Below are positions 5,453-26,002 of a stretch of DNA of 64,000 nucleotides, piece after piece (position 1 is the first letter of the stretch; the number at the start of each line of letters is the position of its first letter). A program made the position numbers and the translations under genes. A model generated the notes under the pieces. It had not been told where the DNA came from, did not search any database, and saw nothing but the letters and a program-made list of their open reading frames with translations. This DNA comes from Marinilabilia sp. (GTDB lineage: Bacteria; Bacteroidota; Bacteroidia; Bacteroidales; Marinilabiliaceae): assembly GCF_016278715.1 (NCBI RefSeq), contig NZ_JADQBH010000108.1, positions 6,761-70,760 on the forward strand, written 5' to 3'.

Positions 5453-5491
5453 ATTCTAACCTCTATTTTTAAATAATTAACACCTGGAACA

Positions 5492-6487: not shown

Positions 6488-6506
6488 CCCAATACACAAA
6501 GGAACC

Positions 6507-7301: not shown

Positions 7302-7311
7302 ACAAAAAACT

Positions 7312-7950: not shown

Positions 7951-7970
7951 AAAAAAATAAATAAGTTTAT

Positions 7971-9161
7971 ATGTCAACTTCATTTCAACCTGACGAGCGA
8001 GGATTTTACGGCCCCTTTGGAGGCGCCTACATCCCGGAAATGCTCATTCCCAACATTGAAAACCTGAGGAATAATTATTTACGAATAATCAATTCCGAGT
8101 CGTTTCGGAAAGATTTCAAAAACCTTCTGGAAGATTATGCAGGACGGCCATCTCCCCTATATCATGCAGGGCGGCTTTCCGAGCATTATGGTTGCAACAT
8201 ATGGTTAAAACGTGAAGACCTCAACCACACCGGGAGCCATAAAATAAACAACACCATCGGCCAGATTCTCCTGGCCAATGAAATGGGAAAAAAGCGCATC
8301 ATCGCAGAGACCGGTGCAGGACAACATGGCGTGGCCACGGCTACGGTATGTGCCCTTATGGGACTGGACTGCATTGTTTACATGGGTGAAACCGATATGG
8401 AACGTCAGGCCCCCAATGTGGCACGGATGAAAATGCTTGGAGCTGACGTAAGACCAGCGATGTCGGGCAGTCGCACACTGAAAGATGCGACCAATGAAGC
8501 CTTGCGCGACTGGATTGCAAATCCGCTGGATACTTTTTACCTCATCGGTTCGGTGGTGGGACCCCATCCCTACCCAGACCTGGTAGCCCGGCTGCAATCG
8601 GTCATTAGTGGAGAAATACAATGGCAAATGAGGAACAAAACCGGCAACAGCAATCCCGACTATGTCGTTGCTTGTGTGGGTGGCGGTTCCAATGCTGCAG
8701 GGTCATTCTATCATTTTCTGAACGAACCGGATGTAAAACTAATTGGTGCAGAAGCATCGGGCGAGGGTTTAACCTCCGGGAAAACCGCCGCATCCATTGC
8801 CATGGGCGAAACCGGGGTAATACACGGAAGCATGACCTACCTGATGCAAACAGACGACGGTCAAATCACAGAACCCTACAGCATTTCTGCAGGACTCGAC
8901 TACCCCGGAATAGGTCCTTTACACTCCTGGCTATCAAAAACAGGACGGGCAAAATATCTTTCTGTCACCGACCAGGAAGCTCTGGATGCAGCACTGTTGC
9001 TCACAAGAAAAGAAGGCATTATTCCAGCACTGGAATCGGCCCATGCATTGGCAGCACTCGACCAACTGGAACTAAAATCAGAAGAAAATGTAGTGGTCAC
9101 TGTTTCCGGACGAGGAGACAAAGACATGAAAACCTACATGGAACGGTTTAATTTGAAATAA
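7971..9161 (+). CDS. trpB: Tryptophan synthase beta chain
   Basis: HTGSHKINN (PLP Lys), [13 protein letters not shown] and SGRGDKD motifs. Confidence 0.98.
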
Positions 9162-9203
9162 GTTAAAGCAATATCCATTTACAAACAAAACCAGAAACTA
9201 CCA

Positions 9204-9974
9204 ATGGAAAAATTAAAGTCTCTGCTTAAAAGAAAAAAAGACCTGTTATCGGTTTATTTCACAGCAGGATTCCCCGATATTGAAAGCACCACAAAGGTCT
9301 TAAAATCACTGGAAAAAGCCGGAGTTGATTTTGTGGAAATCGGAATGCCCTACTCCGACCCGCTGGCCGACGGCCCAGTGATACAAAACAGCAGCACCCG
9401 GGCACTGAAAAACGGTATGAGCCTGAAAAAGCTTTTTGAACAACTGAGCAGTATCTCGGCGGAAATCTCTATTCCCATGATTCTGATGGGATACCTGAAT
9501 CCTGTGCTCAAATTCGGGGTGGGGGAATTCGTTGAGCAATGTAAAACAAATAACATCAGTGGACTGATTCTCCCAGACCTTCCATACGAAACCTATATGG
9601 ATGAATATCAGGAACTTTTTACCAAAAACGGCATCAGTAACATATTCCTGATCACTCCACAGACACCGGAGGAACGCGTCAGAAAACTTGACAAAGCCTC
9701 CACTTCATTTATTTACATGGTTTCCTCTGCAGCGGTAACCGGTGCCCGGGACGGATTATCTCCCCAACAAATCGAGTATTTTGAACGCATCAATGACATG
9801 GAACTCACTAATCCTCGAATGGTCGGTTTTGGCATCAGTAATCACCAAACCTTCAGCGATGTATGCCTACATGCACATGGTGCCATTGTGGGTAGCGCGT
9901 TTATCAAACACCTTGAGCAATCGGGCGATGATGAGGAGGGGATAATTAATTTTATTAAAGGACTTAAAGGCTAA
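9204..9974 (+). CDS. trpA: Tryptophan synthase alpha chain
   Basis: EIGMPYSDPLADGPVIQ, VTG and GFGI motifs. Confidence 0.97.
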   Translation: MEKLKSLLKRKKDLLSVYFTAGFPDIESTTKVLKSLEKAGVDFVEIGMPYSDPLADGPVIQNSSTRALKNGMSLKKLFEQLSSISAEISIPMILMGYLNPVLKFGVGEFVEQCKTNNISGLILPDLPYETYMDEYQELFTKNGISNIFLITPQTPEERVRKLDKASTSFIYMVSSAAVTGARDGLSPQQIEYFERINDMELTNPRMVGFGISNHQTFSDVCLHAHGAIVGSAFIKHLEQSGDDEEGIINFIKGLKG

Positions 9975-10071
9975 CAAACTCCTAAATCCAGGAAAAATAA
10001 ACTTTCTCGAAGGATATTAACCACAGAGAACGCTGAGGAGAAAATATCCGGGTATTCGGATAATAAATTAT

Positions 10072-10079
10072 TACTTTTG
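10072..10079 (+). promoter_or_regulatory. TAnnTTTG -7 box upstream of purU
   Basis: TACTTTTG 20 nt before the purU ATG. Confidence 0.55.
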
Positions 10080-10099
10080 CAGGCAAAACAGTTACAAAA

Positions 10100-10963
10100 A
10101 TGTCAGAAAACCAAACAGCCATATTACGAATTCATTGTCCCGACCAAAGGGGAATTGTTGCACGAGTGACGGATTTCATTCATCAGAACAACGGGAATGT
10201 AGTGGCTCTGGACCAATACACCAACCGCGAAGAAAAGCGCTTTTTCATGCGTGTGGAATGGGAGATGGATGGATTCACCCTGGACCGCGATGAAATAGAA
10301 ACCGTTTTTGGGCCACTACTGGCAAAACCACTGGACATGGTGTGGGATTTAAAATTTTCCGATAAAATTCCCCGCATGGGTATCTTCGTGTCCAGAAGTT
10401 CACATTGCCTGTACGACCTTCTGGCCCGCTACGAGGCAGGAGAATTGAAAGTGGAAATCCCGGTCATTATCAGTAACCACAAAGAGATGGAACATGTGGC
10501 AGGACAGTTTAATATTCCCTTTTACCATGTGCCTGTCAACAAGGACAACAAAAAAGAACAGGAACTGCAGGAACTGAAAGTTCTGCAGGAACACAAAGTC
10601 GATTTCATTGTCCTGGCCCGTTACATGCAAATTTTATCGTCCGATTTTGTCAGGAATTTCCCCAATAAAGTCATCAATATCCATCACTCGTTTCTTCCAG
10701 CATTTGCAGGTGCCAAACCCTATCACGCCGCCCACTCCAGGGGAGTTAAAATCATTGGGGCCACCAGCCACTATGTTACATCCGACCTGGATGCCGGCCC
10801 AATCATTGATCAGGACATTACCCGGATATCCCATCACGACTCGGTAGAAAGTCTGGTTCAGAAAGGGAAAGATATTGAAAAAATTGTACTTTCACGGGCA
10901 GTGAAAGCCCACCTGGATCGGAAAACCCTGGTTTATAAAAACAAAACAGTAGTTTTTGCCTAA
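10100..10963 (+). CDS. purU: Formyltetrahydrofolate deformylase
   Basis: N-terminal ACT domain (CPDQRGIVA), VLARYMQILS, INIHHSFLP and LDAGPII motifs. Confidence 0.96.
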   Translation: MSENQTAILRIHCPDQRGIVARVTDFIHQNNGNVVALDQYTNREEKRFFMRVEWEMDGFTLDRDEIETVFGPLLAKPLDMVWDLKFSDKIPRMGIFVSRSSHCLYDLLARYEAGELKVEIPVIISNHKEMEHVAGQFNIPFYHVPVNKDNKKEQELQELKVLQEHKVDFIVLARYMQILSSDFVRNFPNKVINIHHSFLPAFAGAKPYHAAHSRGVKIIGATSHYVTSDLDAGPIIDQDITRISHHDSVESLVQKGKDIEKIVLSRAVKAHLDRKTLVYKNKTVVFA

Positions 10964-10975
10964 AGCTCAAACGTT

Positions 10976-11500
10976 ATGCTCAAATTAAAACATCTTTTTT
11001 TCCTTATGTTGATGGTAACCAACCTCAGCTGTCAGAACACAAAAGACAACCGTGGATACATTGTTGAAGTAGGCGACAAGGCTCCTCTTTTTGAAACAAC
11101 ATTGACCAACGGCGACACGTTTCGGCTTGAAGACCATAAAGGTAAAGTAGTGATGCTTCAGTTTACCGCCAGCTGGTGTGGTGTTTGCCGGAAAGAGATG
11201 CCACACATTGAAAAGGAAATATGGCAACCCTACAAAGACAAAGGTCTTGTGGTTGTGGGCATTGACCGGGATGAACCTCTGGAAACCGTAAGGAAATTTG
11301 CGAAAGAAACAGGCATCAGTTACCCCCTGGCTTTAGACCCCGGCGCTGATATCTTTAAGCTATATGCAGAAGACAGAGCCGGCGTAACGCGCAATGTACT
11401 GATCGACAAGGAAGGGAATATTATTTTTCTGACCAGACTATTCAACGAGAAGGAGTTTTCGGCACTGGTTAATAAAGTTGACCAATTAATGAAGAACTAA
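10976..11500 (+). CDS. TlpA/AhpC-TSA family redoxin, probable lipoprotein
   Basis: FTASWCGVC thioredoxin-fold CxxC; lipobox-like NLSC. Confidence 0.85.
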   Translation: MLKLKHLFFLMLMVTNLSCQNTKDNRGYIVEVGDKAPLFETTLTNGDTFRLEDHKGKVVMLQFTASWCGVCRKEMPHIEKEIWQPYKDKGLVVVGIDRDEPLETVRKFAKETGISYPLALDPGADIFKLYAEDRAGVTRNVLIDKEGNIIFLTRLFNEKEFSALVNKVDQLMKN

Positions 11501-11502
11501 AA

Positions 11503-12102
11503 ATGAAGATTGTAATCATAAAATACAATGCCGGCAACATTCAATCGGTTAGTTTCGCGCTGGAACGGCTGGGATATCAGGCAGAAATAACGGCCGACCA
11601 TGACACCATCCGGAAAGCGGACAAGGTCATTTTTCCAGGAGTGGGCGAAGCCAGTACCACCATGGCCTATCTGAAAAAAGAAGGACTTGACCAACTGATT
11701 CCCTCACTCACTCAGCCTGTGCTGGGTATATGCCTGGGAATGCAACTCATGTGCAGTCATTCCGAAGAAGGAAACACACCGTGTCTGGGCATCTTCGATG
11801 AGAAAGTGAAGAAATTCGTTGCCCCTGTTCAGGATTCGGAAAGATTTAAGATTCCCCACATGGGATGGAACCAGCTCATAAACGTCAAAAAACCGTTGTT
11901 CAGCCAAGAACTGGAGAACGAATTTGTCTATTTTGTCCACAGTTTTTATGTGGCCACCGGCCCGGATACCGCTGCCGAGAGCCATTATATACATCCATTC
12001 AGTGCTGCTCTGAGAAAAAATAATTTTTTCGCAACACAGTTTCACCCAGAGAAGAGCAGTAAGGCGGGGGAGCAGATTCTTAAGAATTTTCTTTCGTTGT
12101 GA
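11503..12102 (+). CDS. hisH: Imidazole glycerol phosphate synthase, glutaminase subunit
   Basis: FPGVG, GICLGMQ, IPHMGWN, YFVHS and QFHPEKS motifs. Confidence 0.97.
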   Translation: MKIVIIKYNAGNIQSVSFALERLGYQAEITADHDTIRKADKVIFPGVGEASTTMAYLKKEGLDQLIPSLTQPVLGICLGMQLMCSHSEEGNTPCLGIFDEKVKKFVAPVQDSERFKIPHMGWNQLINVKKPLFSQELENEFVYFVHSFYVATGPDTAAESHYIHPFSAALRKNNFFATQFHPEKSSKAGEQILKNFLSL

Positions 12103-12183
12103 GAGGAGCCAGGAAGCTGAATACTGGAGGTTAGGCACCCTAGATCCCCCCAAGGGTGACATGAAAAAGATTGGAAGTTAGAG

Positions 12184-12288
12184 CAATAGTCCGTTAAAAA
12201 AAGCTTAAACGCAGAGACGCAATGACGCAAAGTTTTTATTATGAGTGAGTTGTGCCCTGCTCGCCTGGTTTTGTAATGGATTGATTAT
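12184..12288 (+). repeat. ~105-bp direct repeat, copy 1 (hisH-hisA spacer)
   Basis: caatagtccgttaaaaaaagcttaaacgcagagacgcaatgacgcaaagttttt...agtgagttgtg...ttgtaatg, near-identical to 13086-13190. Confidence 0.85.
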
Positions 12289-12344
12289 CAACCGTTTTTA
12301 AAAGTTTAACAGAGTATTGTTAGAGGTTAGAAATTTTATAAAAA

Positions 12345-13076
12345 ATGCAATCAATAGAACTTATACCTGCCATCGACATTATTGACGGAAAATGTGTCAG
12401 ATTGAGCAAAGGAGATTACAGCACACAAAAAACATACAATGAGAATCCACTGGAAGTAGCCAAACAATTTGAAGATTATGGCATCCGGCGTCTTCACCTG
12501 GTCGATTTGGACGGCGCAAAAGCCGGATACATTGTCAACTACAAAGTACTAGAGAAAATTGCCGGACAAACCGCTCTCACCATCGATTTCGGAGGCGGAC
12601 TTAAAACTGTTGAAGACCTGCGGGTAGCATTTGAATGCGGAGCCCAGATGGTCACCGGAGGAAGCATCGCAGTGAAAAACCCGGAGGAATTCCTGCAATG
12701 GCTGACCAAGCACGGCCCGGAAAAGATCATCCTCGGCTCGGATGCCAAAAACCGCAAAATTGCTACATCAGGTTGGCTGGAAACCTCCGAACTCGACCTG
12801 ATGGATTTTCTGAAAGAATACATCGAAAAGGGCATTACCCAGACAATTTGTACCGACATCAGTAAGGATGGAATGCTCGAAGGCCCGTCAACCGATTTAT
12901 ACAAAGAAATTCTTGATAATTTCCCGGAGCTTTATCTCATCGCCAGTGGCGGGGTCAGCAATATGAAAGACATTGATGATCTCGAAGAAGCAGGCGTTCC
13001 TGCGGTAATCTTTGGCAAGGCAATTTATGAAGGCAGGATTGGAATGGAGGAAATTGGGAGGAAAATTAGTGAATAG
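12345..13076 (+). CDS. hisA: ProFAR isomerase HisA
   Basis: [30 protein letters not shown] and ASGG motifs. Confidence 0.97.
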
Positions 13077-13085
13077 TATTTAGTC

Positions 13086-13190
13086 CAATAGGCCGTTAAA
13101 AAAACTTAAACGCAAAGACGCAATGACGCAAAGTTTTTAATATAAGTGAGTTGTGTTCTGCATACTTGACCTTGTAATGAGTTAATTATA
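13086..13190 (+). repeat. ~105-bp direct repeat, copy 2 (hisA-hisF spacer)
   Basis: caataggccgttaaaaaaacttaaacgcaaagacgcaatgacgcaaagttttt...agtgagttgtg...ttgtaatg. Confidence 0.85.
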
Positions 13191-13261
13191 AGTTGATTGG
13201 AATCCACAACCTTCAAAATAACAGACTATTGCGATTGTAATGGTAGATAAAAACAGAAAAA

Positions 13262-13320
13262 AGATTGCTTCGTCACTCGTAATGAAGTTGCAAATCCCGA
13301 CCATTAGGGAAAGCAATCTA
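13262..13320. repeat. GAAGCAATCT-family inverted repeat
   Basis: agattgcttcgtcactcgtaatga ... gaaagcaatcta. Confidence 0.55.
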
Positions 13321-13366
13321 CAATGATATAAGTTTCCCGGTTACCTGTATAAAAAACATTTTTTTA

Positions 13367-14122
13367 ATGCTTGCAAAACGTATCATACCATGCCTCGACA
13401 TCCGCAACGGCCAGACCGTAAAAGGGGTGAAATTTCTGGATATTAAAGAAGTAGGCGACCCCGTGGAGCTGGGTGCCCTTTACGCTCAACAAGGAGCCGA
13501 CGAACTGGTATTCCTGGACATAACCGCAAGCCACGAAAAGCGAAAAACATTCGTGGAACTTGTAAAACGGATTGCTCAACACATCAACATTCCTTTTACG
13601 GTAGGTGGAGGTATTAGTGAGCTGAGCGATGCAGATGCGTTACTTAGCGCCGGAGCCGACAAGATTTCCATAAACTCATCAGCCGTCAGGAATCCTCAGT
13701 TGATTAGCGATATGGCTCAACACTTCGGGAGTCAGTTTGTGGTTGTGGCCATTGATGCCAAACAACTACAGGGAGACGAATGGACTGTCACAGTCAACGG
13801 AGGTCGTATCCCCACCGAAAAACGGCTCTTTAGCTGGGCCCGGGAAGCAGAAGAAAGAGGTGCCGGGGAGATTCTGTTTACCAGTATGGATCACGATGGG
13901 GTAAAACAGGGATTTGCCAACGAAGCTTTAGCCAAACTATCCGATGAGAGAGGTATCCCTATCATTGCCTCGGGAGGGGCGGGAGCCAAAGAACACTTCA
14001 AAGATGTTTTCACCAAAGGCAAAGCAGATGCAGGACTGGCAGCCAGCATTTTCCACTTTAACGAAATTCCCATTCCCGAACTAAAGAACTTTCTAAAAAA
14101 CGAAGGCATCTCAATTCGCTGA
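13367..14122 (+). CDS. hisF: Imidazole glycerol phosphate synthase, cyclase subunit
   Basis: [21 protein letters not shown] and IASGGAG motifs. Confidence 0.97.
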
Positions 14123-14151
14123 CCCGACATTTAAGATGCCGGACAAATTAT

Positions 14152-14159
14152 TATCTTTG
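14152..14159 (+). promoter_or_regulatory. TAnnTTTG -7 box upstream of hisIE (internal promoter candidate)
   Basis: TATCTTTG between hisF and hisIE. Confidence 0.45.
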
Positions 14160-14196
14160 TCGCCAACATATTAATAAACAACACAAACTACATATC

Positions 14197-14793
14197 ATGC
14201 AATTAGATTTTTCAAAACTGGGAAACGGACTGATTCCCGCCATCGTACAGGATGCTCAGACAAATGTGGTACTGATGCTCGGATTCATGAACGAAGAAGC
14301 CTTTGAAAAGACCCGGAAAGATGGAAAAGTCACCTTTTTCAGTCGCACAAAAAACCGGCTCTGGACCAAAGGAGAAGAATCCGGAAACTTCCTGAATGTA
14401 GTCTCCATTACTCCCGACTGCGACAATGATACCATACTGATAAAAGCCAAGCCCGTTGGCCCCGTATGTCACAAGGGAACTGACACCTGCTTTGCTGAAA
14501 AAAACAAGGGCAACATTGACTTCCTGGTTCATTTACAAGACCTCATCGATAAAAGATTGCAAGATATGCCCGAAGGCTCTTACACAACTTCCCTCTTTGA
14601 AAAAGGCATCAACAAAATTGCCCAAAAAGTTGGTGAAGAAGCTGTGGAAACTGTCATTGAGGCTAAAGACAACAACGACAAACTGTTTTTAAATGAAGTG
14701 GCCGACCTGACTTTTCACACGTTGGTATTGCTCACTGCAAAGAGTTACCGCATTGAAGATGTAATCAAAATATTACAGGAAAGACACAAATAG
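14197..14793 (+). CDS. hisIE: Bifunctional phosphoribosyl-AMP cyclohydrolase / phosphoribosyl-ATP pyrophosphatase
   Basis: LWTKGEESGN, DCDND, VCHKGTDTCF and QKVGEEAVE motifs. Confidence 0.97.
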   Translation: MQLDFSKLGNGLIPAIVQDAQTNVVLMLGFMNEEAFEKTRKDGKVTFFSRTKNRLWTKGEESGNFLNVVSITPDCDNDTILIKAKPVGPVCHKGTDTCFAEKNKGNIDFLVHLQDLIDKRLQDMPEGSYTTSLFEKGINKIAQKVGEEAVETVIEAKDNNDKLFLNEVADLTFHTLVLLTAKSYRIEDVIKILQERHK

Positions 14794-14838
14794 AAATAAT
14801 GTATCGGTCAGTTTAAACCGTTAACAAATAGTAGAAAG

Positions 14839-15393
14839 ATGGTGGGGGTAAACGATTCTGTACTTAAGATTTTTGATAAATACTATTCCGAAATCCACCC
14901 GGCCCGGGAAATTTTAATAACCCACAGCCGGCTGGTTCGTGACAAATGCCTGAAAATTGCATCCAATCATCCCGAGTTGGACGCCGATAAGCAGTTTATT
15001 GCTGAAGCATCCCTGCTTCACGACATAGGAATTTTCTTAACAGACGCCCCTCTTATTGGCTGCCACGGCGAACACCCATACATCTCTCACGGCTATCTGG
15101 GCCGCGAACTACTCGAGAAAGAAGGATTGCCTAAACACGGTTTAGTATGTGAAAGGCATACCGGGACCGGACTTACAGTGGAGGAAATCAAATTGCAGAA
15201 TCTGCCACTTCCCCACCGCGACATGGTTCCCCTGAGCATTGAAGAACAAATCATCTGCTTTTCTGATACCTTTTACAGTAAGGGCAATGATTTGGAGAAA
15301 GAGAAAAGCCCTGAAGAGGTGAAAAAAGCCCTGAAAAAATACGGTGACGAAAAAGTTGAAATCTTTTCTCTATGGTGCGAGATGTTTCTATAG
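14839..15393 (+). CDS. HD-domain (HDIG-type) metal-dependent phosphohydrolase
   Basis: HSRLV...LLHDIG...HGYLG...CERH...FSDTF pattern. Confidence 0.85.
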   Translation: MVGVNDSVLKIFDKYYSEIHPAREILITHSRLVRDKCLKIASNHPELDADKQFIAEASLLHDIGIFLTDAPLIGCHGEHPYISHGYLGRELLEKEGLPKHGLVCERHTGTGLTVEEIKLQNLPLPHRDMVPLSIEEQIICFSDTFYSKGNDLEKEKSPEEVKKALKKYGDEKVEIFSLWCEMFL

Positions 15394-15734
15394 ACATTCA
15401 ACCCGATAACGCCGCATGGTATTATCACCATCCCAAATATCGATATAACTGTGCCCAGGCTATGGTAAAACACTTTGGTGGCAGCGAAGCAGATATTTCC
15501 GGGATGAAAAAGATGGGCTCGGGTCGGGCTCCGGAAGGCCATTGCGGGGCTTTGCATGGCGCCCTCTTTCTGTTAAGTGACAATCAGGACACTCACAAAG
15601 AGATGACCGAGAAATTTGCTCAACAAACAGGCAGTCCTTTTTGTCGAGATATCAGAAAAATCAATAAGGTCTCCTGCCAACAATGTGTTGAAATAGCAGA
15701 TTCACTGCTCAAAAAGATTCAAATACAACCCTAA
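15372..15734 (+). CDS. C-GCAxxG-C-C family putative redox protein
   Basis: YNCAQA, GHCGALHG, FCRDI and SCQQC Cys pattern; start uncertain (overlaps the HD gene). Confidence 0.75.
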   Translation: MVRDVSIDIQPDNAAWYYHHPKYRYNCAQAMVKHFGGSEADISGMKKMGSGRAPEGHCGALHGALFLLSDNQDTHKEMTEKFAQQTGSPFCRDIRKINKVSCQQCVEIADSLLKKIQIQP

Positions 15735-15746
15735 AAACAAGCTCTG

Positions 15747-16475
15747 ATGCCCACAAAGATCCAGAAAGAACCCATTTCAGTTTCTTCATTCGATGTAGGA
15801 GCATCCGGCTGTTTAGAAGCATCAGCTCTGATGCGTCATTTTCAGGAAGTAGCCTCTCATCATGCCGATGAACTGGGTGTTGGATTCAATGATTTTAAAC
15901 AAGAGAACATTTTCTGGGCTCTGTCACATATTCAGATCGAAGCCGACAGGTGGCCCCAAATGGAAGAAAGAATCACCATAGAAACCTGGCCCAGAGGAAC
16001 CGAAAAGTTATACACCACCAGAGACTTTCTGGTTTCTGATACCAATAATAAGGTTATTATAAGAGCCACTTCCGCATGGATAATGGTGGACATCAAAAGG
16101 AAAAGACCGATCCGACCAGCCGATAAACTAGCAAACATTGAGTTCACTCCTGAGAAAAAAGCCCTCGGAAACTTCCCCGAACCATTCTATTGTGAAGGAG
16201 AACAACAAACCCAATTGGAACGCAAGGTCGTGTATTCCGACCTGGACATCAATCAGCATGTCAACAACACCAGGTATGTTGAGTGGATGATGGATGCTAT
16301 TGGATTTTCTCCCGACAGGAAGTTGAAATCTTTAAAAATTCATTTCATCAACGAATTCCGATTCAACGAAACAGCGCAAATAAATAACACCCACAATAGC
16401 AACCGTTATTTTTGCTCCATCCTCCATGCAGAGAACAAAAAACCAGGTTGTGAAGCATGCCTCACCTTTATGTAA
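15747..16475 (+). CDS. Acyl-ACP thioesterase (double hotdog fold)
   Basis: TWPRG, RDF and YSDLDINQHVNNTRY motifs. Confidence 0.9.
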   Translation: MPTKIQKEPISVSSFDVGASGCLEASALMRHFQEVASHHADELGVGFNDFKQENIFWALSHIQIEADRWPQMEERITIETWPRGTEKLYTTRDFLVSDTNNKVIIRATSAWIMVDIKRKRPIRPADKLANIEFTPEKKALGNFPEPFYCEGEQQTQLERKVVYSDLDINQHVNNTRYVEWMMDAIGFSPDRKLKSLKIHFINEFRFNETAQINNTHNSNRYFCSILHAENKKPGCEACLTFM

Positions 16476-16553: not shown

Positions 16554-17012
16554 TTAGTCAACTCTCTGCTTAATCTCCGGATTACTACTGTAAGCAGCAA
16601 TCATTTCCTGATACATATCGGGACCGATACCGGCTTCGGAAACAACCTGGCTAACTTCCTGCTGTGCCTCCATCTGGACACTATGAATCTCGTCAGAAAT
16701 ACTTTGGAATATTTGCATATCTTCTTCCTGTACTCCTTCTGGTTCTTTACCCTGTTGCATTTGACGAGCAATTTGATTAAACCGATCCATACCCTGCTCT
16801 TCAATTTCTTTCACCATCTTTTGCTCAGCCTTCTGCTGAATGGGCAATACTTCTAATACCGCTTCAGCAAACCTATCAATCTCTTCAGCAGAATAGTCCT
16901 TCTGCTTCTGTTGTTGCTGTTGATGCATCATTTGCTGCTGAACAGAAACCATTCCTCCCATTACAAACATTCCATATAGAAACATGCTGGCAATTTTTCT
17001 TTTAAACAGCAT
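16554..17012 (-). CDS. Secreted Gln-rich helical protein, DUF4168-like
   Basis: Signal peptide, poly-Q linker, EEIDRFAEA and MDRFNQIA motifs. Confidence 0.65.
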   Translation of the reverse strand: MLFKRKIASMFLYGMFVMGGMVSVQQQMMHQQQQQKQKDYSAEEIDRFAEAVLEVLPIQQKAEQKMVKEIEEQGMDRFNQIARQMQQGKEPEGVQEEDMQIFQSISDEIHSVQMEAQQEVSQVVSEAGIGPDMYQEMIAAYSSNPEIKQRVD

Positions 17013-17470: not shown

Positions 17471-19066
17471 ATGAAGAAGGTCGTTTTTTCCATCATTTTG
17501 GCTTCAATAGGCATCCTGGCATTGATACACATCGCTTACGACCCACCACTTCCGAATCTGAGCGAGCTGAAACTCAAACAGGAATTTGCCATCAAACCCA
17601 CTTCGTCGGTTGACCACAAACTTTTTGAAGAGCTTCAAAAGGACTTTGATTCTCCTCAGGAAGTTACGGAAGCGTGTATTGCGTGCCACAATCAACGCCA
17701 TAAAGAAGTGATTGCATCCAGCCACTGGAACTGGGAGCGCATCTCGTACGTAGAGGGACGCGGAATCGCCAGCATGGGTAAAAGCAACGTACTCAACAAC
17801 TATTGTATTGGAGCAAGTTCTAATGAACAATCCTGTGCTGCCTGCCACATTGGCTTTGGAATGACCAATAACCGCTTTGACTTTGACAATGCACGAAATG
17901 TGGACTGTATGGTTTGCCACGACAACAGCGAAGAGTACCACAAGGGTTCTGCCATGGCCGGTTATCCGGATCGGTCGGTCAACCTTACCAGTGTAGCTCA
18001 AAGCGTGGGACGTCCCCAAAGGATGAATTGTGGTGCGTGTCACTTTTACAGTGGTGGAGGAAATAACGTTAAGCATGGAGATCTGGAAGAAGCACTTCTT
18101 TCTACAACTCGTGACGTGGATGTGCACATGGCAGCCAACGGAATGAATATGACCTGTGTGGACTGTCACTCTGCCGAGAACCATAACATAAAAGGGAAAC
18201 TTTACTCAGTATCATCAAGTGATGAAAACCGACTGACCTGTGACCACTGCCATACAAGCACTCCACACATGGATCACAACCTTGACTTACATACAGCAAG
18301 GGTAGCCTGTCAGACCTGTCACATTCCGACTTACGCGAAAGTGAACCCTACAAAAATGGAATGGAGATGGTCTGATGCCGGTCGCATGGAAGAAGGTAAG
18401 CCCTTTCATGAGACAGACTCCTCAGGAGTGGAGACCTATATGTCCATCAAAGGCTCCTTCCGTTGGGAGACAAATGTTAAACCGGATTATTATTGGTTTA
18501 ATGGTCATGCCACACATTACGTTTTGGGCGATCAGGTAGACAGCATTCCTGTACAAATTAATCATTTGTTCGGGTCAGCAACAGACAACAGATCGAAAAT
18601 ATATCCTGTGAAAGTTCACCGGGGAGACCAGATCTATGACCCGGAAACCAACATGCTGATTCAGCCAAAACTTTGGGCTGCAGAGGAAGGCGACAGTGCT
18701 TACTGGAAAGATTTTGACTGGAATCTGGCCGCAGAAGCCGGCATGAAACGGGTTGGACTTCACTACAGTGGAACCTATGAATTCGTAAATACCGAAATGT
18801 ACTGGCCCGTTAACCATATGGTGGCCCCAAAAGAAGACGCACTTTCATGTGAAGAATGCCACCAGCGGAAAAACAGCCGACTGGCAGGCCTTAATGACTT
18901 CTACATGCCGGGAAGAGACTCCCATGCTGGACTTGACCTCATCGGGAGACTTCTAATTATTGCCGCCCTTGCCGGAGTTATCCTTCACGGAATGGGCAGA
19001 GTAGTGGCTGCCATCAAAAATAAAGAGATAGAATCGGAAGAAATCAACACCAATTACCACCAATAA
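17471..19066 (+). CDS. otr: Tetrathionate reductase (OTR)-family octaheme cytochrome c with N- and C-terminal hydrophobic helices
   Basis: Eight CxxCH motifs (CIACH, CAACH, CMVCH, CGACH, CVDCH, CDHCH, CQTCH, CEECH); GKSNVLNNYC segment; GGGNNVKHGD. Confidence 0.85.
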   Translation: MKKVVFSIILASIGILALIHIAYDPPLPNLSELKLKQEFAIKPTSSVDHKLFEELQKDFDSPQEVTEACIACHNQRHKEVIASSHWNWERISYVEGRGIASMGKSNVLNNYCIGASSNEQSCAACHIGFGMTNNRFDFDNARNVDCMVCHDNSEEYHKGSAMAGYPDRSVNLTSVAQSVGRPQRMNCGACHFYSGGGNNVKHGDLEEALLSTTRDVDVHMAANGMNMTCVDCHSAENHNIKGKLYSVSSSDENRLTCDHCHTSTPHMDHNLDLHTARVACQTCHIPTYAKVNPTKMEWRWSDAGRMEEGKPFHETDSSGVETYMSIKGSFRWETNVKPDYYWFNGHATHYVLGDQVDSIPVQINHLFGSATDNRSKIYPVKVHRGDQIYDPETNMLIQPKLWAAEEGDSAYWKDFDWNLAAEAGMKRVGLHYSGTYEFVNTEMYWPVNHMVAPKEDALSCEECHQRKNSRLAGLNDFYMPGRDSHAGLDLIGRLLIIAALAGVILHGMGRVVAAIKNKEIESEEINTNYHQ

Positions 19067-19079
19067 CCAACCGAACGTC

Positions 19080-19727
19080 ATGCAAAAAGTATATATCTAT
19101 AAAACATTTGAACGCTTCTGGCACTGGACTCAGGCCGCCTTGATATTCTTTCTGGCCATCACGGGCTTCGAAGTACACGGCAGCTTTTCATTTCTGGGCT
19201 ACGAACAGGCGGTAGAGTCTCATCGCGTCGCAGCGTGGATGCTGTTAATTTTAATCGCCTTTTCCATCTTCTGGCATTTTACCACAGGAGAATGGAGACA
19301 ATACATACCAACTTTTTCCAAGTTACAGGCACAAATGCGATACTACACCATTGGAATCTTCAAAGGAGAGCCCCATCCCACCAGTAAAACCGCCCGGAAA
19401 AAACTCAACCCGCTTCAAGCTTTGACCTATCTGGGATTTAAACTGGTAATGGCTCCACTGTTGGTAATCACCGGCTTTGTCTATATGTTTTATCGCACCA
19501 TCGATGCCAACAACATGGTCATCATCAGCGACATTCCACTAGAGGTAATCGCTTTTCTACATACCCTTGGTGCCTACCTGATTATCATGTTTGCCATTGT
19601 ACATGTTTATATGACCACCACGGGACATACGCCCACATCAAACATCAGGGCCATGCTGACCGGTTACGAGGAGCTGGAAGAAGACAATGAAGAACAAGTA
19701 AAAGAAGAAAACAAAAAACAAGAATAA
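19080..19727 (+). CDS. Membrane b-type cytochrome (Ni/Fe-hydrogenase CytB / PhsC-like)
   Basis: ERFWHW, SHR, FWH, LNPLQ, FLH and IVHVY His pattern over four TM helices. Confidence 0.85.
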   Translation: MQKVYIYKTFERFWHWTQAALIFFLAITGFEVHGSFSFLGYEQAVESHRVAAWMLLILIAFSIFWHFTTGEWRQYIPTFSKLQAQMRYYTIGIFKGEPHPTSKTARKKLNPLQALTYLGFKLVMAPLLVITGFVYMFYRTIDANNMVIISDIPLEVIAFLHTLGAYLIIMFAIVHVYMTTTGHTPTSNIRAMLTGYEELEEDNEEQVKEENKKQE

Positions 19728-19728
19728 T

Positions 19729-20253
19729 ATGGACCAAAAGAACAAATTCATGAATCCCTATCTGGCAGGTGTCCTGCTGGGGTTTGTATTGTTGGCGACC
19801 ATTTACATAACAGGCCGTGGTTTGGGCGCAAGCGGGGCGATGAAAAGTGTTGCAGTTACAACTGTCCGGGCCGCCGCACCGGATCATTACGAATCCACCG
19901 CCTATTACCAGGATTATGCCGCTGATCATCCCGATGGCCCGATGAAATCGTGGTTGGTTTTTGAAATGCTGGGCGTATTGGTTGGTGCATTTCTAAGCGG
20001 AGCCCTTTCGGGACGCCTTGGACTTAAATTGGAAAAAGGCCCTGGCGTAACCAACACCACCCGGATCATTGGCGCCATCATTGGCGGAATACTGTTTGGC
20101 TTCGGCAGTCAGTTGGGACGCGGGTGTACCAGTGGTTCAGCCCTTAGCGGAATGGCTGTGATGTCATTTGGCGGAATTATCACCATGCTGGCCATCTTCG
20201 GTGGCGCCTACGCATTTGCATGGTTTTTCAGAAAATTATGGATAACCCGATAA
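19729..20253 (+). CDS. YeeE/YedE family sulfur-compound transporter
   Basis: MNPYLAG, GLGASG and GRGCTSG conserved motifs. Confidence 0.85.
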   Translation: MDQKNKFMNPYLAGVLLGFVLLATIYITGRGLGASGAMKSVAVTTVRAAAPDHYESTAYYQDYAADHPDGPMKSWLVFEMLGVLVGAFLSGALSGRLGLKLEKGPGVTNTTRIIGAIIGGILFGFGSQLGRGCTSGSALSGMAVMSFGGIITMLAIFGGAYAFAWFFRKLWITR

Positions 20254-20263
20254 AAGGATAAAA

Positions 20264-21463
20264 ATGGCACCATTAATACCGGAAATAATATCTCCCGAAT
20301 ATAACTACCTGATAGCCCTCATTGTAGGACTGGGTTTTGGATTTGCCCTTGAACAGGCAGGTTTTTCGAGCACACGCAAACTAGTAGGACTCTTTTACGG
20401 ATACGATTTTACCGTACTGAAGGTGTTTTTCACCGCGGGCGTTACCGCAATGATTGGAGTAGTCACGCTCTCCCATCTGGAGATGCTCAACACTGAAATC
20501 ATTTTTGTCAACCCCACATTTCTGCCATCAGCCATCACTGGCGGGATAATAATGGGAGCCGGATTCATTATCGGCGGCTTCTGTCCCGGAACCAGTGCTG
20601 CAGCTGCAGCAATCGGAAAATTGGACGGATGGGCCTTTATCGGAGGTGCAACCATCGGCATTTTTGCCTTCGGTGAATTTTATCCACTGCTCGAGGATTT
20701 CTATCTTGCAGGCAATCAGGGTCCACTGCTCTTCTACAATGTACTCGGCATTGAAAGAATTACTTTCGCACTGATTCTGATGGCTGTTGCCATCTTCGCT
20801 TTTGTAGCAACCGGAATGATTGAAGACAAAGTCAATAAGAAACCCGTACATATTCTTAGTGGCAACTGGAAAAACAAAACCATTGCTGCAGCAATTCCCC
20901 TTGCGGTGGTCCTGATATTAATGATCACACCCTCACGCAAGGAATTCACCATGGAGAAGCTGGAAGCACGTGCAGCATCCGGAGAATGCAAACCCGACCT
21001 TATTGATGCCGACAAACTGGCATTTGAGATCATGAACAACTATTATCAGTACAATGTGATTGATGTTCGTTCGGCAGAAGAATACAAGGCATTCCACATT
21101 GCTACGGCAATCAATATCCCATTGGATGATTTGCATAGCACAGCTTACCGAAAATTGCTCAATCAGCGCATTCAAACCAACGTATTTTATGGAGCATCCC
21201 CGGCACAAGCAAAAAAAGCCTGTTTAATTGCCCGGTATCACGGAAACGAGACCAGCCTGGCCCTGAATGTCACTGCCGAAGACTTCAAAAACACCTTTTA
21301 TGGCGAAATAAGCATCCCTGAAAATCCCACAAAATCACAGCAAACCATCGCCCTTTTCAGGCGTCGGGCAGCCGAAAAAATGAAAGAAATCGAAAAAAAC
21401 CTAGCTTCCCGCGAAAAACCGGTACAACAAAAAGTAACAAGAGTTCAGGGAGGATGTAGTTAA
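20264..21463 (+). CDS. YeeE/YedE family protein fused to a rhodanese-like domain and a C-terminal GGCS tail
   Basis: GFALEQAGF and GGFCPGT motifs; IDVRSAEEYKAFHIATAINIP rhodanese signature; ends KVTRVQGGCS. Confidence 0.8.
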   Translation: MAPLIPEIISPEYNYLIALIVGLGFGFALEQAGFSSTRKLVGLFYGYDFTVLKVFFTAGVTAMIGVVTLSHLEMLNTEIIFVNPTFLPSAITGGIIMGAGFIIGGFCPGTSAAAAAIGKLDGWAFIGGATIGIFAFGEFYPLLEDFYLAGNQGPLLFYNVLGIERITFALILMAVAIFAFVATGMIEDKVNKKPVHILSGNWKNKTIAAAIPLAVVLILMITPSRKEFTMEKLEARAASGECKPDLIDADKLAFEIMNNYYQYNVIDVRSAEEYKAFHIATAINIPLDDLHSTAYRKLLNQRIQTNVFYGASPAQAKKACLIARYHGNETSLALNVTAEDFKNTFYGEISIPENPTKSQQTIALFRRRAAEKMKEIEKNLASREKPVQQKVTRVQGGCS

Positions 21464-21609: not shown

Positions 21610-23604
21610 ATGATGCATGATTACAAACACAAAAACAACATTCTGAGTAGAACCGCATGGGCTGTTCTTTTCAGTTTCATTGTCGCTTTTAGCGCCAACA
21701 GTCAGGTAACGGTCATGGTGGACGACAATGGTGTCGCCTTCACAGATGTTGCCAATCACTCCAGCTGGGCAAATGCCACCAGCGACTTACAGGCAGCCAT
21801 TGATGGTGTTGCTGCTGAACCCGGTGGAGGTGAAGTATGGGTAGCCGGAGGAACTTATCTGCCCACCACTATTCTGGCAGCCGATCCGACAGCCCCTGTA
21901 CCGCCTTTTAACATTCCCGGAGATGCTCTATCCGGCACTGATGCCCGGCAAACTTCATTTGTCATGGCATCCAATGTTCGGGTACTCGGAGGCTTTATGG
22001 GAACCGAGACTTTGGAAGGAGATCGTCCTGATGACTTATTCGCCACAGCTAACAGAGTAACTCTCAGTGGAGACATTGGTGTGGCCAATGACACCACCGA
22101 CAATGCCTATCATGTGGTTTTGTTCCCTCTCGGCGTGGACGACACCGCAATTCTTGAAGGGATGTATGTCACTAAAGGAAATGGGAATTCTGAAAATTAC
22201 TTCGCACACCGGGGGGCTGGCGTCCATGTTCGTGAAGGAGGAACCATCAAAGAGTGTGTCATTACCGACAACTATGCATCAGAAGGAGGAGCTGGCGTTT
22301 ATTTGTACAAAGGAGGGAATCTTGTTTACTCGGAGATTTCCCACAACAAAACCCAACAAAAAGGAGGTGGAGTATTCTTAAACCTCGGTGGGGAAGTACA
22401 ACAATGTCTGATTCACAGCAACACAGCTATTCACCTAACGAAAGCCAATGGAGGAGGAGTGTTCATGGATGCTGACATCACGTCTTTCGGAACCATAACC
22501 CACTCTTTTATTAGCGTAAATTCCTCAGCAAATAAAGGAGGAGGTATGGCTGTTTACGACGGTAGCCTTGTTTCCAATAATTTTATCTCCAACAATGAAG
22601 CAGTCGGAAACGGGGGTGGAATATATTTACAAAACGGGGGTTTGATAATTAACAACACAATAGTCTCAAACTCTTCAGACCTGGGTACCGGAATCTATGC
22701 AAATGAAGGCGGCGAGATTTACAACACAGCGATATGGGGCAATGCTACCCCTTATACTCCCAACGACCAATTCGATTTCATTGATGCAGATGGAACATTT
22801 CAGGTAGTTATTGACCATTGCGCCATTCAGGATGAGACAAACCCATTGTTTACAAATAGCATTACTCTGGATGCAGCCAACACCGGAACAGGAACCCATC
22901 CCTATTTCAGAAATCCCGTCACTTTTGCAGGACTTCCGGCCGATCAGGCCCAGGTTGATGAGATATTCACCAGCGATTACAGAATCAATGTAGAGTCGGC
23001 TCTTCTGGATGCCGGTATTGATAATCCGGGTGGAATTCCTCTCCCCTTGCTGGATCTCGGCGCAACCCCGAGATTGGTTCAATCATCCGTGGACATTGGT
23101 GCTTTCGAAGCAAATTACTCCGATATAACAGGAACAGTTTTCAGTGGCAACGGAACAATTGATCCTATTGTCGCAAAAGTTCTTAATGGTGGAGAAGTCG
23201 TCTTCACCTTAACACCTGAAACAGGTTTTGAGGTTACTACATTTACCATAAATGGAGACGATTTTACCGCAAGTCTTATTCCGGACGGCAGTTCCTTTAC
23301 TTACACAGCAACGGTTACTCAAAACATTGACGCTGTCGTAACCTTTGGAGTCGCCAATAGCCTTAATGAAAATGAAACCGGTGAGTTTAGATTATATCCG
23401 GTTCCGGCCGAAAGAGAATTATTCATTTCAGGGGCTGCAATAAATAAGGTTGAAATCTTCTCGGCCGACGGAAAACTGGTTAAAATAATGGAAGATACGG
23501 ACATCAAATCCATCCCGGTATCCGGTCTTAAGAAGGGCCTTTACTTAATCTCTTTAACCCGCAATTCCGGAGAGATTATAAACACCAGATTTATCAAAAA
23601 ATAA
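21610..23604 (+). CDS. T9SS-secreted parallel beta-helix protein (choice-of-anchor Q-like), paralogue 1
   Basis: Signal peptide, GGG-rich N-x-A-x-x-GGG repeats, VDIGAFE, C-terminal LYPVPA...KGLYLISL sorting domain. Confidence 0.8.
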   Translation: MMHDYKHKNNILSRTAWAVLFSFIVAFSANSQVTVMVDDNGVAFTDVANHSSWANATSDLQAAIDGVAAEPGGGEVWVAGGTYLPTTILAADPTAPVPPFNIPGDALSGTDARQTSFVMASNVRVLGGFMGTETLEGDRPDDLFATANRVTLSGDIGVANDTTDNAYHVVLFPLGVDDTAILEGMYVTKGNGNSENYFAHRGAGVHVREGGTIKECVITDNYASEGGAGVYLYKGGNLVYSEISHNKTQQKGGGVFLNLGGEVQQCLIHSNTAIHLTKANGGGVFMDADITSFGTITHSFISVNSSANKGGGMAVYDGSLVSNNFISNNEAVGNGGGIYLQNGGLIINNTIVSNSSDLGTGIYANEGGEIYNTAIWGNATPYTPNDQFDFIDADGTFQVVIDHCAIQDETNPLFTNSITLDAANTGTGTHPYFRNPVTFAGLPADQAQVDEIFTSDYRINVESALLDAGIDNPGGIPLPLLDLGATPRLVQSSVDIGAFEANYSDITGTVFSGNGTIDPIVAKVLNGGEVVFTLTPETGFEVTTFTINGDDFTASLIPDGSSFTYTATVTQNIDAVVTFGVANSLNENETGEFRLYPVPAERELFISGAAINKVEIFSADGKLVKIMEDTDIKSIPVSGLKKGLYLISLTRNSGEIINTRFIKK

Positions 23605-24004: not shown

Positions 24005-26002
24005 ATGAATGCAACCACCCGCCGAAACTTAAGCTTCCTTTTCACTTTCCTCATTGTCTTCAGCCCACTGGCTTTCATCGATGCTCAGGTAATTGTTAAA
24101 GTCAAGCCTTCCGACAAAGGAGGAATTACATTTTCAGATGTAACCCAACACAATACGTGGGGTACAGCCACCTTCGAATTACAAAAAGCTATTGACGAGG
24201 TTCATGCAAGTGGAGGCGGAGAAGTATGGGTGGCCGGGGGAACCTATCTTCCTACCAGTTATCTTGCTGCAGCCCCCGATGCCCCCAACCCACCACTGCA
24301 GGATCCAGGTGATCCCGGTTCGCCCATCGACGAACGTCAACTTTCATTCATTATGGCCAGTGGCGTGTCTGTTATCGGAGGATTTACCGGGTCTGAAACA
24401 AGCCTGGAACAAAGACCTTCCGACTTTTATGGCAGCGAAAACAAAGTAGTCCTAAGCGGTGACATTGGAACTGCTTCTTTAGCAGAAGACAACGCCTATC
24501 ATGTTGTGATCTTTCCTCCCGAAACAGATAATACGGCCATATTACAAAATGTAGTTATCTCGGGAGGCTATGCCAACGGCCCGGATGCCTATTTCGCAAA
24601 AACAGGAGCAGGTGTCCATATTCGCGAAGGAGGATTGCTAAAAGAGTGCCAGGTTCAGAACAATGTCTCAGCAGGAAGTGGCGGGGGGGTTTACCTCTAT
24701 AAAGGTGGAAAGGTAAGAAACTGTACCATTTTCGAGAACACAGCTTTTGTCCAGGGTGGTGGAGTCTATTCCAACCTTGGAGGCGAAATATCAAGATCGG
24801 CCATCTTTAAAAACACAGCCGGAAATTACATCACTGACGGCAAAGGTGGCGGTGTATTCCTCGTAGCTGATGAAACACAGGAAGGAACCATTACCCATTC
24901 CGCGGTATTTGCCAACAGTTCGACCAACAAAGGTGGAGGAATTGCAACCTATGCAGGAGGCCGTATCATTAATAACTATATCGGGAATAATGAAACAGAA
25001 GGAAAAGGAGGAGGCATTTTTCTCCAGGTCGGCGGGCTGGTATTAAACAGTACAGTAGTCTCAAATGCCGGCGGTCAGGGGGCAGCAATATTTTGTAACG
25101 ACGGGGGCACTGTTTACAATACGGTTATGTGGGGAAATACAACCCCCTACAATAACAACCAACTCTTAACCGATGATGATGATGCAACCTCAAGCACTCC
25201 CCTCTTTGATTTTTGTGCCATTCAGGAGGGAACTTCTACTCCGGAAATCACGAACCTGATCTCCCTTTCTCCGGAAAACACCGGAACCGGAGTCCACCCC
25301 TATTTCAGGAATCCAGTCACATTTGCAGGACTTCCGGCCGACCAGCTCCAAGCTGCTGAGATCTCCGCCAGCGATTACCGAATCAATGTAGAGTCAGCTC
25401 TTCTGGATGCCGGTATTAATAATCCGGGTGGAATTCCCCTTCCTCCTCTTGATCTTGACGCAACTCTACGATTGATTCAGTCGTCAGTGGACATTGGTGC
25501 TTTTGAAGCCGATTACTTCGATATAACAGGAACTGTTTCCATTGGCAACGGGACAATTGATCCTATTGATGCAAAAATTCTTAATAGTGGAGAAGTCCTC
25601 TTCACCTTAACACCTGAGACAGGTTTTGAGGTTACTACATTTACCATAAATGGAGACGATTTTACCCCAAGTCTTATTCCGGACGGCAATTCCTTTACTT
25701 ACACAGCAACGGTTTCTGAAAACATTGACGCAGTCGTAACGTTTGGAGTCGCCAATAGTCTTATAGAAAATAAAACCGGGAAGTTTAGATTATATCCGGT
25801 ACCCGCAGAAAGTGAATTATTCATTTCTGGTGCTTCCATCCAAAAGGTAGAAATCTTCTCAACAGACGGCAAACCGGTTAAAATCATGGAAAAAGTCAAC
25901 ATCTCTTCCATTCCTGTTTCCGGTCTAAAAAGAGGCTTATACTTTATTTCATTAACAGATGATACCGGTAAAGTCATCACAACACGCTTCATTAAGAAGT
26001 AA
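24005..26002 (+). CDS. T9SS-secreted parallel beta-helix protein, paralogue 2
   Basis: Same architecture as 21610-23604; C-terminal LYPVPA...RGLYFISL sorting domain. Confidence 0.8.
   Translation: MNATTRRNLSFLFTFLIVFSPLAFIDAQVIVKVKPSDKGGITFSDVTQHNTWGTATFELQKAIDEVHASGGGEVWVAGGTYLPTSYLAAAPDAPNPPLQDPGDPGSPIDERQLSFIMASGVSVIGGFTGSETSLEQRPSDFYGSENKVVLSGDIGTASLAEDNAYHVVIFPPETDNTAILQNVVISGGYANGPDAYFAKTGAGVHIREGGLLKECQVQNNVSAGSGGGVYLYKGGKVRNCTIFENTAFVQGGGVYSNLGGEISRSAIFKNTAGNYITDGKGGGVFLVADETQEGTITHSAVFANSSTNKGGGIATYAGGRIINNYIGNNETEGKGGGIFLQVGGLVLNSTVVSNAGGQGAAIFCNDGGTVYNTVMWGNTTPYNNNQLLTDDDDATSSTPLFDFCAIQEGTSTPEITNLISLSPENTGTGVHPYFRNPVTFAGLPADQLQAAEISASDYRINVESALLDAGINNPGGIPLPPLDLDATLRLIQSSVDIGAFEADYFDITGTVSIGNGTIDPIDAKILNSGEVLFTLTPETGFEVTTFTINGDDFTPSLIPDGNSFTYTATVSENIDAVVTFGVANSLIENKTGKFRLYPVPAESELFISGASIQKVEIFSTDGKPVKIMEKVNISSIPVSGLKRGLYFISLTDDTGKVITTRFIKK

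Follow-up and report, generated by a model that had tools for sequence, protein, structure and literature searches.

The 64-kb stretch of Marinilabilia sp. DNA analysed here (64,000 nucleotides (nt), referred to below as the window) encodes a protein of 399 amino acids (aa) in which the predicted N-terminal half of a split YeeE channel is fused to a rhodanese domain without catalytic cysteine, followed by a long helix and a basic, disordered tail with a Gly-Gly-Cys end. The open reading frame (ORF) is the last of a four-gene cassette that also encodes an octahaem c-type cytochrome of the OTR family, a membrane cytochrome b, and the other channel half. In the protein family to which it belongs the tail cysteine (Cys398) is invariant, the cysteine of the rhodanese loop has been lost, and the genes are linked to two classes of reductase. 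We consider, with moderate confidence, that Cys398 is probably a periplasmic carrier or relay cysteine at the outer mouth of the channel, on an arm that resembles that of SoxY by convergence.

The protein closes with K390-V-T-R-V-Q-G-G-C398-S399 (21431-21460) and a taa stop codon (21461-21463), Cys398 being encoded by tgt at 21455-21457. A search of 5.8 billion proteins returned 2282 matches, and column counts were taken from the best 120 (47-93% identity), which are nearly all 398-400 aa long and, where named, belong for the most part to genera of the Marinilabiliaceae and to related Bacteroidales; carriers of the fused protein include Marinilabilia rubra, Geofilum rubicundum, and Saccharicrinis or Carboxylicivirga strains. 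Among these 120 homologues, G396 and G397 were kept in 120 and C398 in 119; P386 was likewise kept in 119/120, and the residues from P386 to G396 vary yet remain basic. The C-terminal 175 aa were also used for an exhaustive HMMER search of 1.84 billion cluster representatives (50% identity), which yielded 242 proteins; the tail was counted in the 61 of these in which the match extends to the C-terminal region. Every one of these 61 deep representatives has a cysteine among its last three residues, in 59 as GGC, with the ends GGC, GGCS, GGCG, GGCGV, GGCGL, and GGCD and nearly always a preceding run of lysine or arginine. A GGC-terminal protein is encoded in all 82 genomic loci examined, and the terminal cysteine is the sole cysteine of the protein in 12 of 21 stand-alone relatives. 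Selenocysteine (GGU) variants, about which the initial annotation had asked, were absent from the 82 loci and from the 61 deep representatives, and the terminal GGC whose invariance it had proposed to check is conserved at both depths. Conservation of this order is far beyond chance and points to strong selection on the tail.

An AlphaFold2 (AF2) model of the 399-aa protein, built on 73 homologues (mean predicted local distance difference test score (pLDDT) 75, predicted template modelling score (pTM) 0.52), has a helical membrane part followed by a rhodanese alpha/beta domain at approximately aa 245-345, and it reproduces the long charged helix that the initial annotation had described ahead of the tail. 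Within this helix F365-R366 is conserved (family motif YxFRxAA), also in the stand-alone forms. The Pfam match to the rhodanese family covers aa 262-327 with 32.2 bits vs a cut-off of 22.2, and Foldseek searches with the model retrieved the single-domain rhodaneses 3o3w, 6k6r, 6bev, and 3gk5 with a probability of 1.0. The signature IDVRSAEEYKAFHIATAINIP (IDVRSAEEY..HI..AINIP) occupies aa 266-286 and the active loop reads N-V-F-Y-G at 21179-21193, with Gly310 (gga) at 21191-21193; signature, loop, and KVTRVQGGCS end were all found where the initial annotation had placed them.

Alignment to BH2092 (3o3w) puts Gly310 one residue past the cysteine of the TYCWG loop, and following the usual layout of single-domain rhodaneses we take Gly310 to stand at the position of the catalytic cysteine. 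In the best 120 homologues this position is glycine in 81, alanine in 37, serine in 2, and cysteine in none. Among ~81 deep representatives the loop position is serine in 31, alanine in 24, and glycine in 16 (71 S/A/G in all) and cysteine in 4, and the loop cysteine is missing in ~95% of the family. Judged by the catalytic cysteine, the rhodanese domain of the 399-aa protein is of the inactive type. Two other cysteines, Cys242 (20987-20989, 108/120) and Cys320 (21221-21223, 110/120), are kept in ~90% of the fused subfamily and have no equivalents in most stand-alone relatives; a structural disulfide between them is possible and would be in keeping with a periplasmic location.

Table 1. Features of the cassette and of the 399-aa protein, in window coordinates
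Feature	Position	Strand	Evidence
OTR-family octaheme c-type cytochrome, eight CxxCH motifs	17471..19066	+	NCBIfam TIGR04315, 579 bits (cut-off 375); Pfam Cytochrome_cB
PhsC-like membrane cytochrome b	19080..19727	+	PF01292, 87.7 bits
Predicted YeeE C-half (PmpA-like), 174 aa	19729..20253	+	Pfam PF04143, profile positions 175-309
399-aa ORF: predicted YeeE N-half, extra transmembrane (TM) helix, rhodanese, helix, GGC tail	20264..21463	+	
Predicted YeeE N-half (PmpB-like), H7 equivalent (aa 165-187), extra TM helix (aa 204-222, 20873-20929)	20264..20935	+	
Rhodanese homology domain without catalytic Cys	20996..21298	+	PF00581
Long charged alpha-helix, aa 357-384	21332..21415	+	AF2 model, pLDDT 83-89
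Disordered basic tail KPVQQKVTRVQGGCS and stop codon	21416..21463	+	pLDDT <50 for residues 388-399

By profile and conserved cysteines, the 399-aa ORF and the gene preceding it encode the two halves of a split YeeE of the PmpAB type. The initial annotation had read the protein as a YeeE fusion; the fusion to rhodanese stands, but the channel portion is the N-half only, and the C-half is the product of the preceding gene. The Sulf_transp match of the ORF runs from aa 34 to 221 and corresponds to profile positions 4-196 of 310, and the PF04143 scores of the two halves are 40.4 and 77.2 bits. The upstream half aligns to residues 239-329 of StYeeE and contains Arg30 in GRGLGASG and Cys133 (20125-20127) in GRGCTSG, the latter equivalent to C293 of StYeeE and invariant in 67 sequences, while the N-half contains Cys107 (20582-20584) in GGFCPGTS, equivalent to C91 of StYeeE and kept in 120/120 homologues. 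A PmpB-like protein is an N-half with the C91-equivalent cysteine and a PmpA-like protein a C-half with the C293 equivalent (Li et al., PMC11582611). The full-length AF2 model gave rhodanese matches only in Foldseek, 6LEO was not retrieved by the half-channel, and phmmer with the whole 399-aa ORF against the PDB missed YeeE. Because these structure and PDB searches aligned only the upstream half to StYeeE, the N-half assignment rests on the Pfam profile coordinates and on the published division (PMC11582611).

StYeeE has a linear cysteine relay with C293 at a periplasmic indentation and C91 and C22 toward the cytoplasm, its crystals show that a C22-C91 disulfide can form, and its outer vestibule is positively charged, for free thiosulfate (PMC7449682). 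An equivalent of C22, the cysteine on the cytoplasmic side, is absent from the split channel. Scores to the TsuA equivalog models were far under the cut-off, and transport of thiosulfate or zero-valent sulfur by the cassette channel is putative.

In the YeeE crystal structure the N-terminus is outside and the C-terminus inside, and H7 reverses the topology between the halves (PMC7449682). Mean counts of lysine plus arginine (K+R) per segment, taken over 73 homologues of the 399-aa family, were 0.0 for the N-terminus, 0.01 for loop 73-85, 0.38 for loop 147-164, and 4.16 for loop 188-203; because 4.16 stands against values near zero, loop 188-203 is assigned to the inside and the N-terminus and the other two loops to the outside. 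The upstream half would be N-in/C-in, since its N-terminus, middle loop, and C-terminus are rich in lysine and arginine. In most genomes the rhodanese-GGC part is a stand-alone form, a separate gene of ~205 aa starting with MKK and a hydrophobic helix (signal anchor), and the split relatives break exactly at the positive loop, with YeeE_B ending in ...EKKFPREEY and the rhodanese-GGC gene starting with MKK and a TM helix. Other GGC-tailed rhodaneses bear a lipobox (P0224, P0237, P0161, and a tandem-rhodanese protein, L049:9215-10318). Because the topology of YeeE, the family-wide positive-inside counts, and the signal-anchored and lipoprotein relatives agree, the rhodanese-GGC module most likely faces the periplasm, alongside OTR. 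Of the earlier proposal that the tail shuttles sulfur between the transporter and the cytochrome or the cytoplasm, the cytoplasmic part is therefore not retained, and the link to the cytochrome is supported by strict gene linkage with OTR and cytochrome b. A tail cysteine that restores the missing relay residue C22 was considered and rejected, as C22 lies on the cytoplasmic side (PMC7449682) and the tail outside.

The genomic company of the module was surveyed by scanning species-representative genomes with the stand-alone forms, which gave 261 stretches, from which 80 loci were fetched. Most of the hosts are Bacteroidota, one locus each is labelled Chlorobiota (L059) and Neomarinimicrobiota (L027), and current annotation calls the proteins only 'YeeE/YedE family protein' or 'rhodanese-like domain-containing protein'. 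The fused form adjoins OTR, cytochrome b, and the other YeeE half in 7/7 loci, namely the window, L001 (Saccharicrinis), L002/L003 (a Flavobacteriaceae metagenome-assembled genome (MAG)), L049, L086, L087, and L085 (a partial contig), with the OTR gene upstream of the fused protein in L001, L002, L049, L086, and L087. This linkage persists even at C-terminal-domain identities of just 28-37%. In the split form, the order in the 80 fetched loci is YeeE_A, YeeE_B (196 aa), and the TM-anchored rhodanese-GGC gene, and in 54 of the 55 split loci with enough upstream DNA this trio directly follows genes for a molybdenum (Mo) enzyme with a twin-arginine (Tat) signal, a 4Fe-4S protein, and an NrfD-type anchor. 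The Tat-signal molybdopterin enzyme is closest to PhsA, at 473 bits, under the equivalog cut-off. Two unrelated enzyme classes, both facing the periplasm, fed by quinol, and cleaving S-S bonds, have the channel/rhodanese-GGC trio as a conserved accessory. The order of psrABC, two DUF395 genes, and a rhodanese gene was noted in passing for Ca. Thermonerobacter, Melioribacter, and Ignavibacterium (Thiel et al., PMC6338057), in a paper that is silent on the missing loop cysteine and on the tail.

Several individual loci add to this picture. In L049, a Lentimicrobiaceae MAG, positions 965-12099 hold a PsrABC-like module with split YeeE and TM-anchored rhodanese-GGC protein, followed by a complete OTR module (OTR, cytochrome b, a lipoprotein tandem rhodanese ending in KGGC, a YeeE half, and the fused YeeE-rhodanese-GGC protein); because both modules are carried consecutively, both reductase-linked versions coexist in one genome. 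A partial OTR match at ~12288-12605 of L017, near the end of the fetched locus and after a Psr-type module, suggests the same arrangement there. L088 contains three consecutive rhodanese-like genes (3519-5920) that all end in KKKK-VQGGC, one encoding a TM-anchored Cys-less form, one a lipoprotein with a loop cysteine (ILYCHS), and one a tandem rhodanese with a loop cysteine (VVYCYTG). The GGC tail appears from these sequences to be a modular tag of periplasmic rhodaneses in such operons. Directly downstream of the TM-anchored rhodanese-GGC gene, 21 loci encode a conserved 133-aa protein with an N-terminal signal peptide and without a Pfam or NCBIfam match (e.g. L013 6725-7126 and L032 6737-7138).

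In the mechanism that we propose, the extra TM helix would place the Cys-less rhodanese scaffold and the basic tail of ~15 residues above the outer channel mouth, and Cys398 would there bind sulfane sulfur or thiosulfonate, as a persulfide, a polysulfide, or an S-thiosulfonate formed with tetrathionate. Thiols react with tetrathionate to give S-thiosulfonates. The loaded cysteine would move sulfur between the operon-encoded periplasmic quinol-fed reductase (OTR with cytochrome b in the window, Mo enzymes of PsrABC/PhsABC-like type in relatives) and Cys133 of the upstream half, and Cys107 would then pass it on in the direction of the cytoplasm. The arm would in this way extend the relay from Cys133 to Cys107 outward, as YeeD extends it inward in E. 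coli-type systems, and we estimate that the reach of the ~15 disordered residues after the 28-residue helix may cover both Cys133 and the neighbouring enzyme. A functional carrier or relay cysteine is the most economical reading because the cysteine is invariant, stands on a disordered arm with a SoxY-like end, and is often the only one in the protein, and because the loop cysteine is missing. It is sulfur carriage by Cys398, the direction of transfer, and the identity of the adduct that we infer here. In a related vein, Psr operons have been described with secreted rhodanese-like sulfurtransferases, and periplasmic transferases have been put forward as the sulfur source of YeeE (PMC12142623).

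Several points weigh against this mechanism. The AF2 model, whose overall pTM is just 0.52, offers no docked position for the tail. By analogy with StYeeE, a positive outer vestibule would not obviously attract a polybasic tail. The segment just past the extra TM helix is also positive (K+R 4.6, aspartate plus glutamate 3.6), and the topology of the 399-aa protein is drawn from homology, charge bias, and lipoprotein relatives, just as the sulfur adduct on Cys398 is proposed from sequence and analogy. The physiological substrate and role of OTR have never been established (PMC12949373). Finally, the identical KKKK-VQGGC end of the three different rhodanese-like proteins in L088 would also fit a docking or recognition tag.

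This last point, together with the similar end of the tandem-rhodanese lipoprotein of L049, gives the tail the look of a common tag and leads to an alternative that we regard as rather unlikely, in which the polybasic-GGC end is not a sulfur carrier but a docking, recognition, or redox-gating element. The tail might plug or be tethered to the channel mouth, the reductase, or the membrane, or its thiol might pair with a channel cysteine in a regulatory disulfide. Acidic lipid heads or the net-negative periplasmic loops of the N-half could be bound by the polybasic stretch, and the C22-C91 disulfide in StYeeE crystals indicates that channel cysteines are redox-active. However, a pure tag would need no invariant thiol at the last or second-last residue while its basic part varies freely, a Gly-Gly-Cys end is the solution of SoxY for covalent sulfur carriage, and a rhodanese scaffold that lacks its cysteine suggests a thiol function transferred to the tail.

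We consider it highly improbable that the tail is cytoplasmic and replaces both YeeD/TusA, as a 'fourth cysteine' at the channel exit, and the missing rhodanese cysteine. The lack of a C22 equivalent in the split channel would suit such a role, the polybasic tail and the lysines and arginines just past the last TM helix would fit the cytoplasm, and natural YeeE-YeeD fusions exist (PMC11073785). Pfam detected no TusA/YeeD domain in the 399-aa protein, the cassette contains no TusA/YeeD-like gene, and a crude search of the 64-kb window for ORFs with a CPxP motif gave nothing credible. The helix count set against the solved YeeE topology nevertheless puts the domain outside, and the strongly positive loop is the one before the last TM helix. 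Moreover, the split relatives start with MKK and a TM helix or with lipoprotein signals, and every conserved partner enzyme (OTR and the Tat-exported PsrA-like protein) is periplasmic. Least probable of all is a role for the terminal and, in the AF2 model, exposed Cys398 as a ligand (distal to an OTR haem or to a metal) or as a covalent-modification site: haems with His/Cys ligation have been reported in thiosulfate/tetrathionate enzymes of the TsdA type, but the tail also accompanies Psr/Phs-like Mo enzymes without haem in the catalytic subunit (54/55 split loci), which makes such a role unlikely, and no modifying enzyme is conserved in the cassettes.

Within the carrier reading, the strict linkage suggests that OTR homologues of the window type act on sulfur, possibly in protein-bound form. 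A further and more speculative step, which we think unlikely, is that the true substrate of OTR, and of the interchangeable Psr/Phs-like enzyme, would be a sulfur adduct on the GGC arm and not a free ion, with Cys-S-S-SO3- formed with tetrathionate, or a Cys-polysulfide, as candidates. If so, the system would be a reductive mirror image of SoxXA-SoxY in which the split YeeE loads or unloads the arm across the membrane, and OTR would gain the physiological role that it has lacked (PMC12949373).

The closest functional parallel is SoxY, a periplasmic protein whose C-terminal GGCGG arm carries sulfur covalently and serves a c-type cytochrome and other enzymes (PMC6067878, PMC5336275). The SoxY-like tail of the initial annotation holds at the level of the motif, in KVTRVQGGCS in the window, in the GGCG, GGCGV, and GGCGL ends of relatives, and in an arm with pLDDT <50. 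It does not extend to the fold, as there is no SoxY Pfam match at E<=0.1 and what precedes the tail is an alpha-helix on a rhodanese fold and not a beta-sandwich. Unlike SoxY, the tail of the window family is polybasic and membrane-tethered to a channel, the four-gene cassette (the scope of this comparison) contains no SoxZ partner, and the family is linked to reductases (OTR and Psr/Phs-like) and not to oxidative Sox enzymes.

With YeeE/TsuA and YeeD/TsuB the system shares a membrane part of family PF04143, with adjacent genes for the N- and C-halves and invariant C91 and C293 equivalents, and the idea of an extra cysteine that extends the channel relay is taken from YeeD. YeeD, however, is TusA-like and binds the cytoplasmic face of YeeE at the exit as a 'fourth cysteine' (PMC11073785), whereas the extra cysteine of the window protein would stand on a rhodanese scaffold at a periplasmic entrance. 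The channel itself differs in being split, in having two additional TM helices, and in lacking the C22 equivalent. The suggestion that the arm replaces a YeeD/TusA partner was accordingly not borne out, given an arm placed in the periplasm and a YeeD at the cytoplasmic exit; on our proposal, the lost rhodanese thiol would have moved to the tail in the limited sense of an outward extension of the relay.

Sud-type proteins use a cysteine of the active-site loop, whereas the window family is without that cysteine (~95%) and has its invariant cysteine at the extreme C-terminus. Sud and the secreted rhodaneses of Psr operons are alike in being periplasmic rhodanese-fold proteins coupled genetically to an enzyme of the polysulfide/thiosulfate-reductase type (PMC12142623). 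The partner in the window is an OTR cytochrome and not Psr, and export of the window domain is predicted, although relatives do sit in psrABC-like operons. A phmmer search of the PDB gave no significant sequence match to solved periplasmic sulfurtransferases beyond generic rhodaneses. There is also a weak match of the TM and rhodanese portion to the N-terminus of TsoB (NCBIfam NF045694, a rhodanese/DsbD fusion-like selenoprotein), with E-values of 1e-4 for the window protein and 1.5e-8 for stand-alone forms, far under the 805-bit cut-off. By analogy to DsbD, this portion of TsoB would presumably be membrane-anchored and extracytoplasmic; the window family, unlike TsoB, has neither a DsbD-like domain nor selenocysteine.

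No Pfam or NCBIfam model covers the GGC tail or the YeeE-rhodanese fusion, and the literature on rhodanese, YeeE/DUF395, OTR, polysulfide reductase, and C-terminal cysteines provided gene order only, with no description found of the Cys-less domain with its GGC tail. Periplasmic sulfur carrier and transferase modules are a known kind; the combination of a Cys-less rhodanese with an invariant polybasic-GGC end appears to be new. That sulfur is carried, bound to protein, on a C-terminal Gly-Gly-Cys is well established from the oxidative Sox pathway, and in the window family the GGC arm is tethered to a YeeE-type channel and wired to reductive enzymes. If Cys398 is indeed a carrier, a second, unrelated family would mark the GGC arm as a general means of dealing with reactive sulfur on the periplasmic side. 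This would also offer a handle on how channels of the YeeE/PmpAB type receive their substrate outside and on the in vivo role of OTR-family octahaem cytochromes, which was never established (PMC12949373).

The four genes of the cassette (17471-21463) are separated by spacers of 1-13 nt. The OTR-family cytochrome, which has an N-terminal signal or anchor, is the periplasmic redox partner, and the cytochrome b is presumed to be its quinol-oxidising anchor; among NCBIfam models the latter scores highest, with 111 bits, against the cytochrome b subunit of thiosulfate reductase, under the equivalog cut-off. The OTR-family protein also has a hydrophobic C-terminal TM helix, which contains LIGRLLIIAALAGVILHGMGRVVAAIKNK, a feature found in its L049 homologue as well; the Shewanella OTR has been described as soluble (PMC12949373). 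A scan for promoters and terminators gave counts near those of shuffled sequence, and a sigma-70-type consensus may not apply to a Bacteroidota genome. In a search of sequencing runs, region 17471-21463 was almost wholly present (0.89-0.99 of sampled words) in several 'mine drainage metagenome' runs, all of them DNA runs, with no RNA run listed. Mine-drainage habitats would be expected to be rich in thiosalts.

The genes flanking the cassette are unrelated to it, with histidine biosynthesis upstream and cargo of the type IX secretion system (T9SS) downstream, and neither a regulator nor a sulfur gene adjoins it in the window, the upstream genes being of housekeeping type. The upstream segments 10100-16475 and 16554-17012 encode a formyltransferase (ACT and Formyl_trans_N domains, purU-like), a peroxiredoxin, hisH/hisA/hisF/hisIE-like genes, an HD-domain protein, and an acyl-ACP thioesterase, and a DUF4168 protein is encoded on the minus strand upstream of the cassette. 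Downstream, 21610-23604 and 24005-26002 encode paralogous proteins of 664/665 aa with a Por_Secre_tail (the T9SS C-terminal sorting domain), which are near-identical over their C-terminal thirds and apparently bear no relation to the sulfur cassette.

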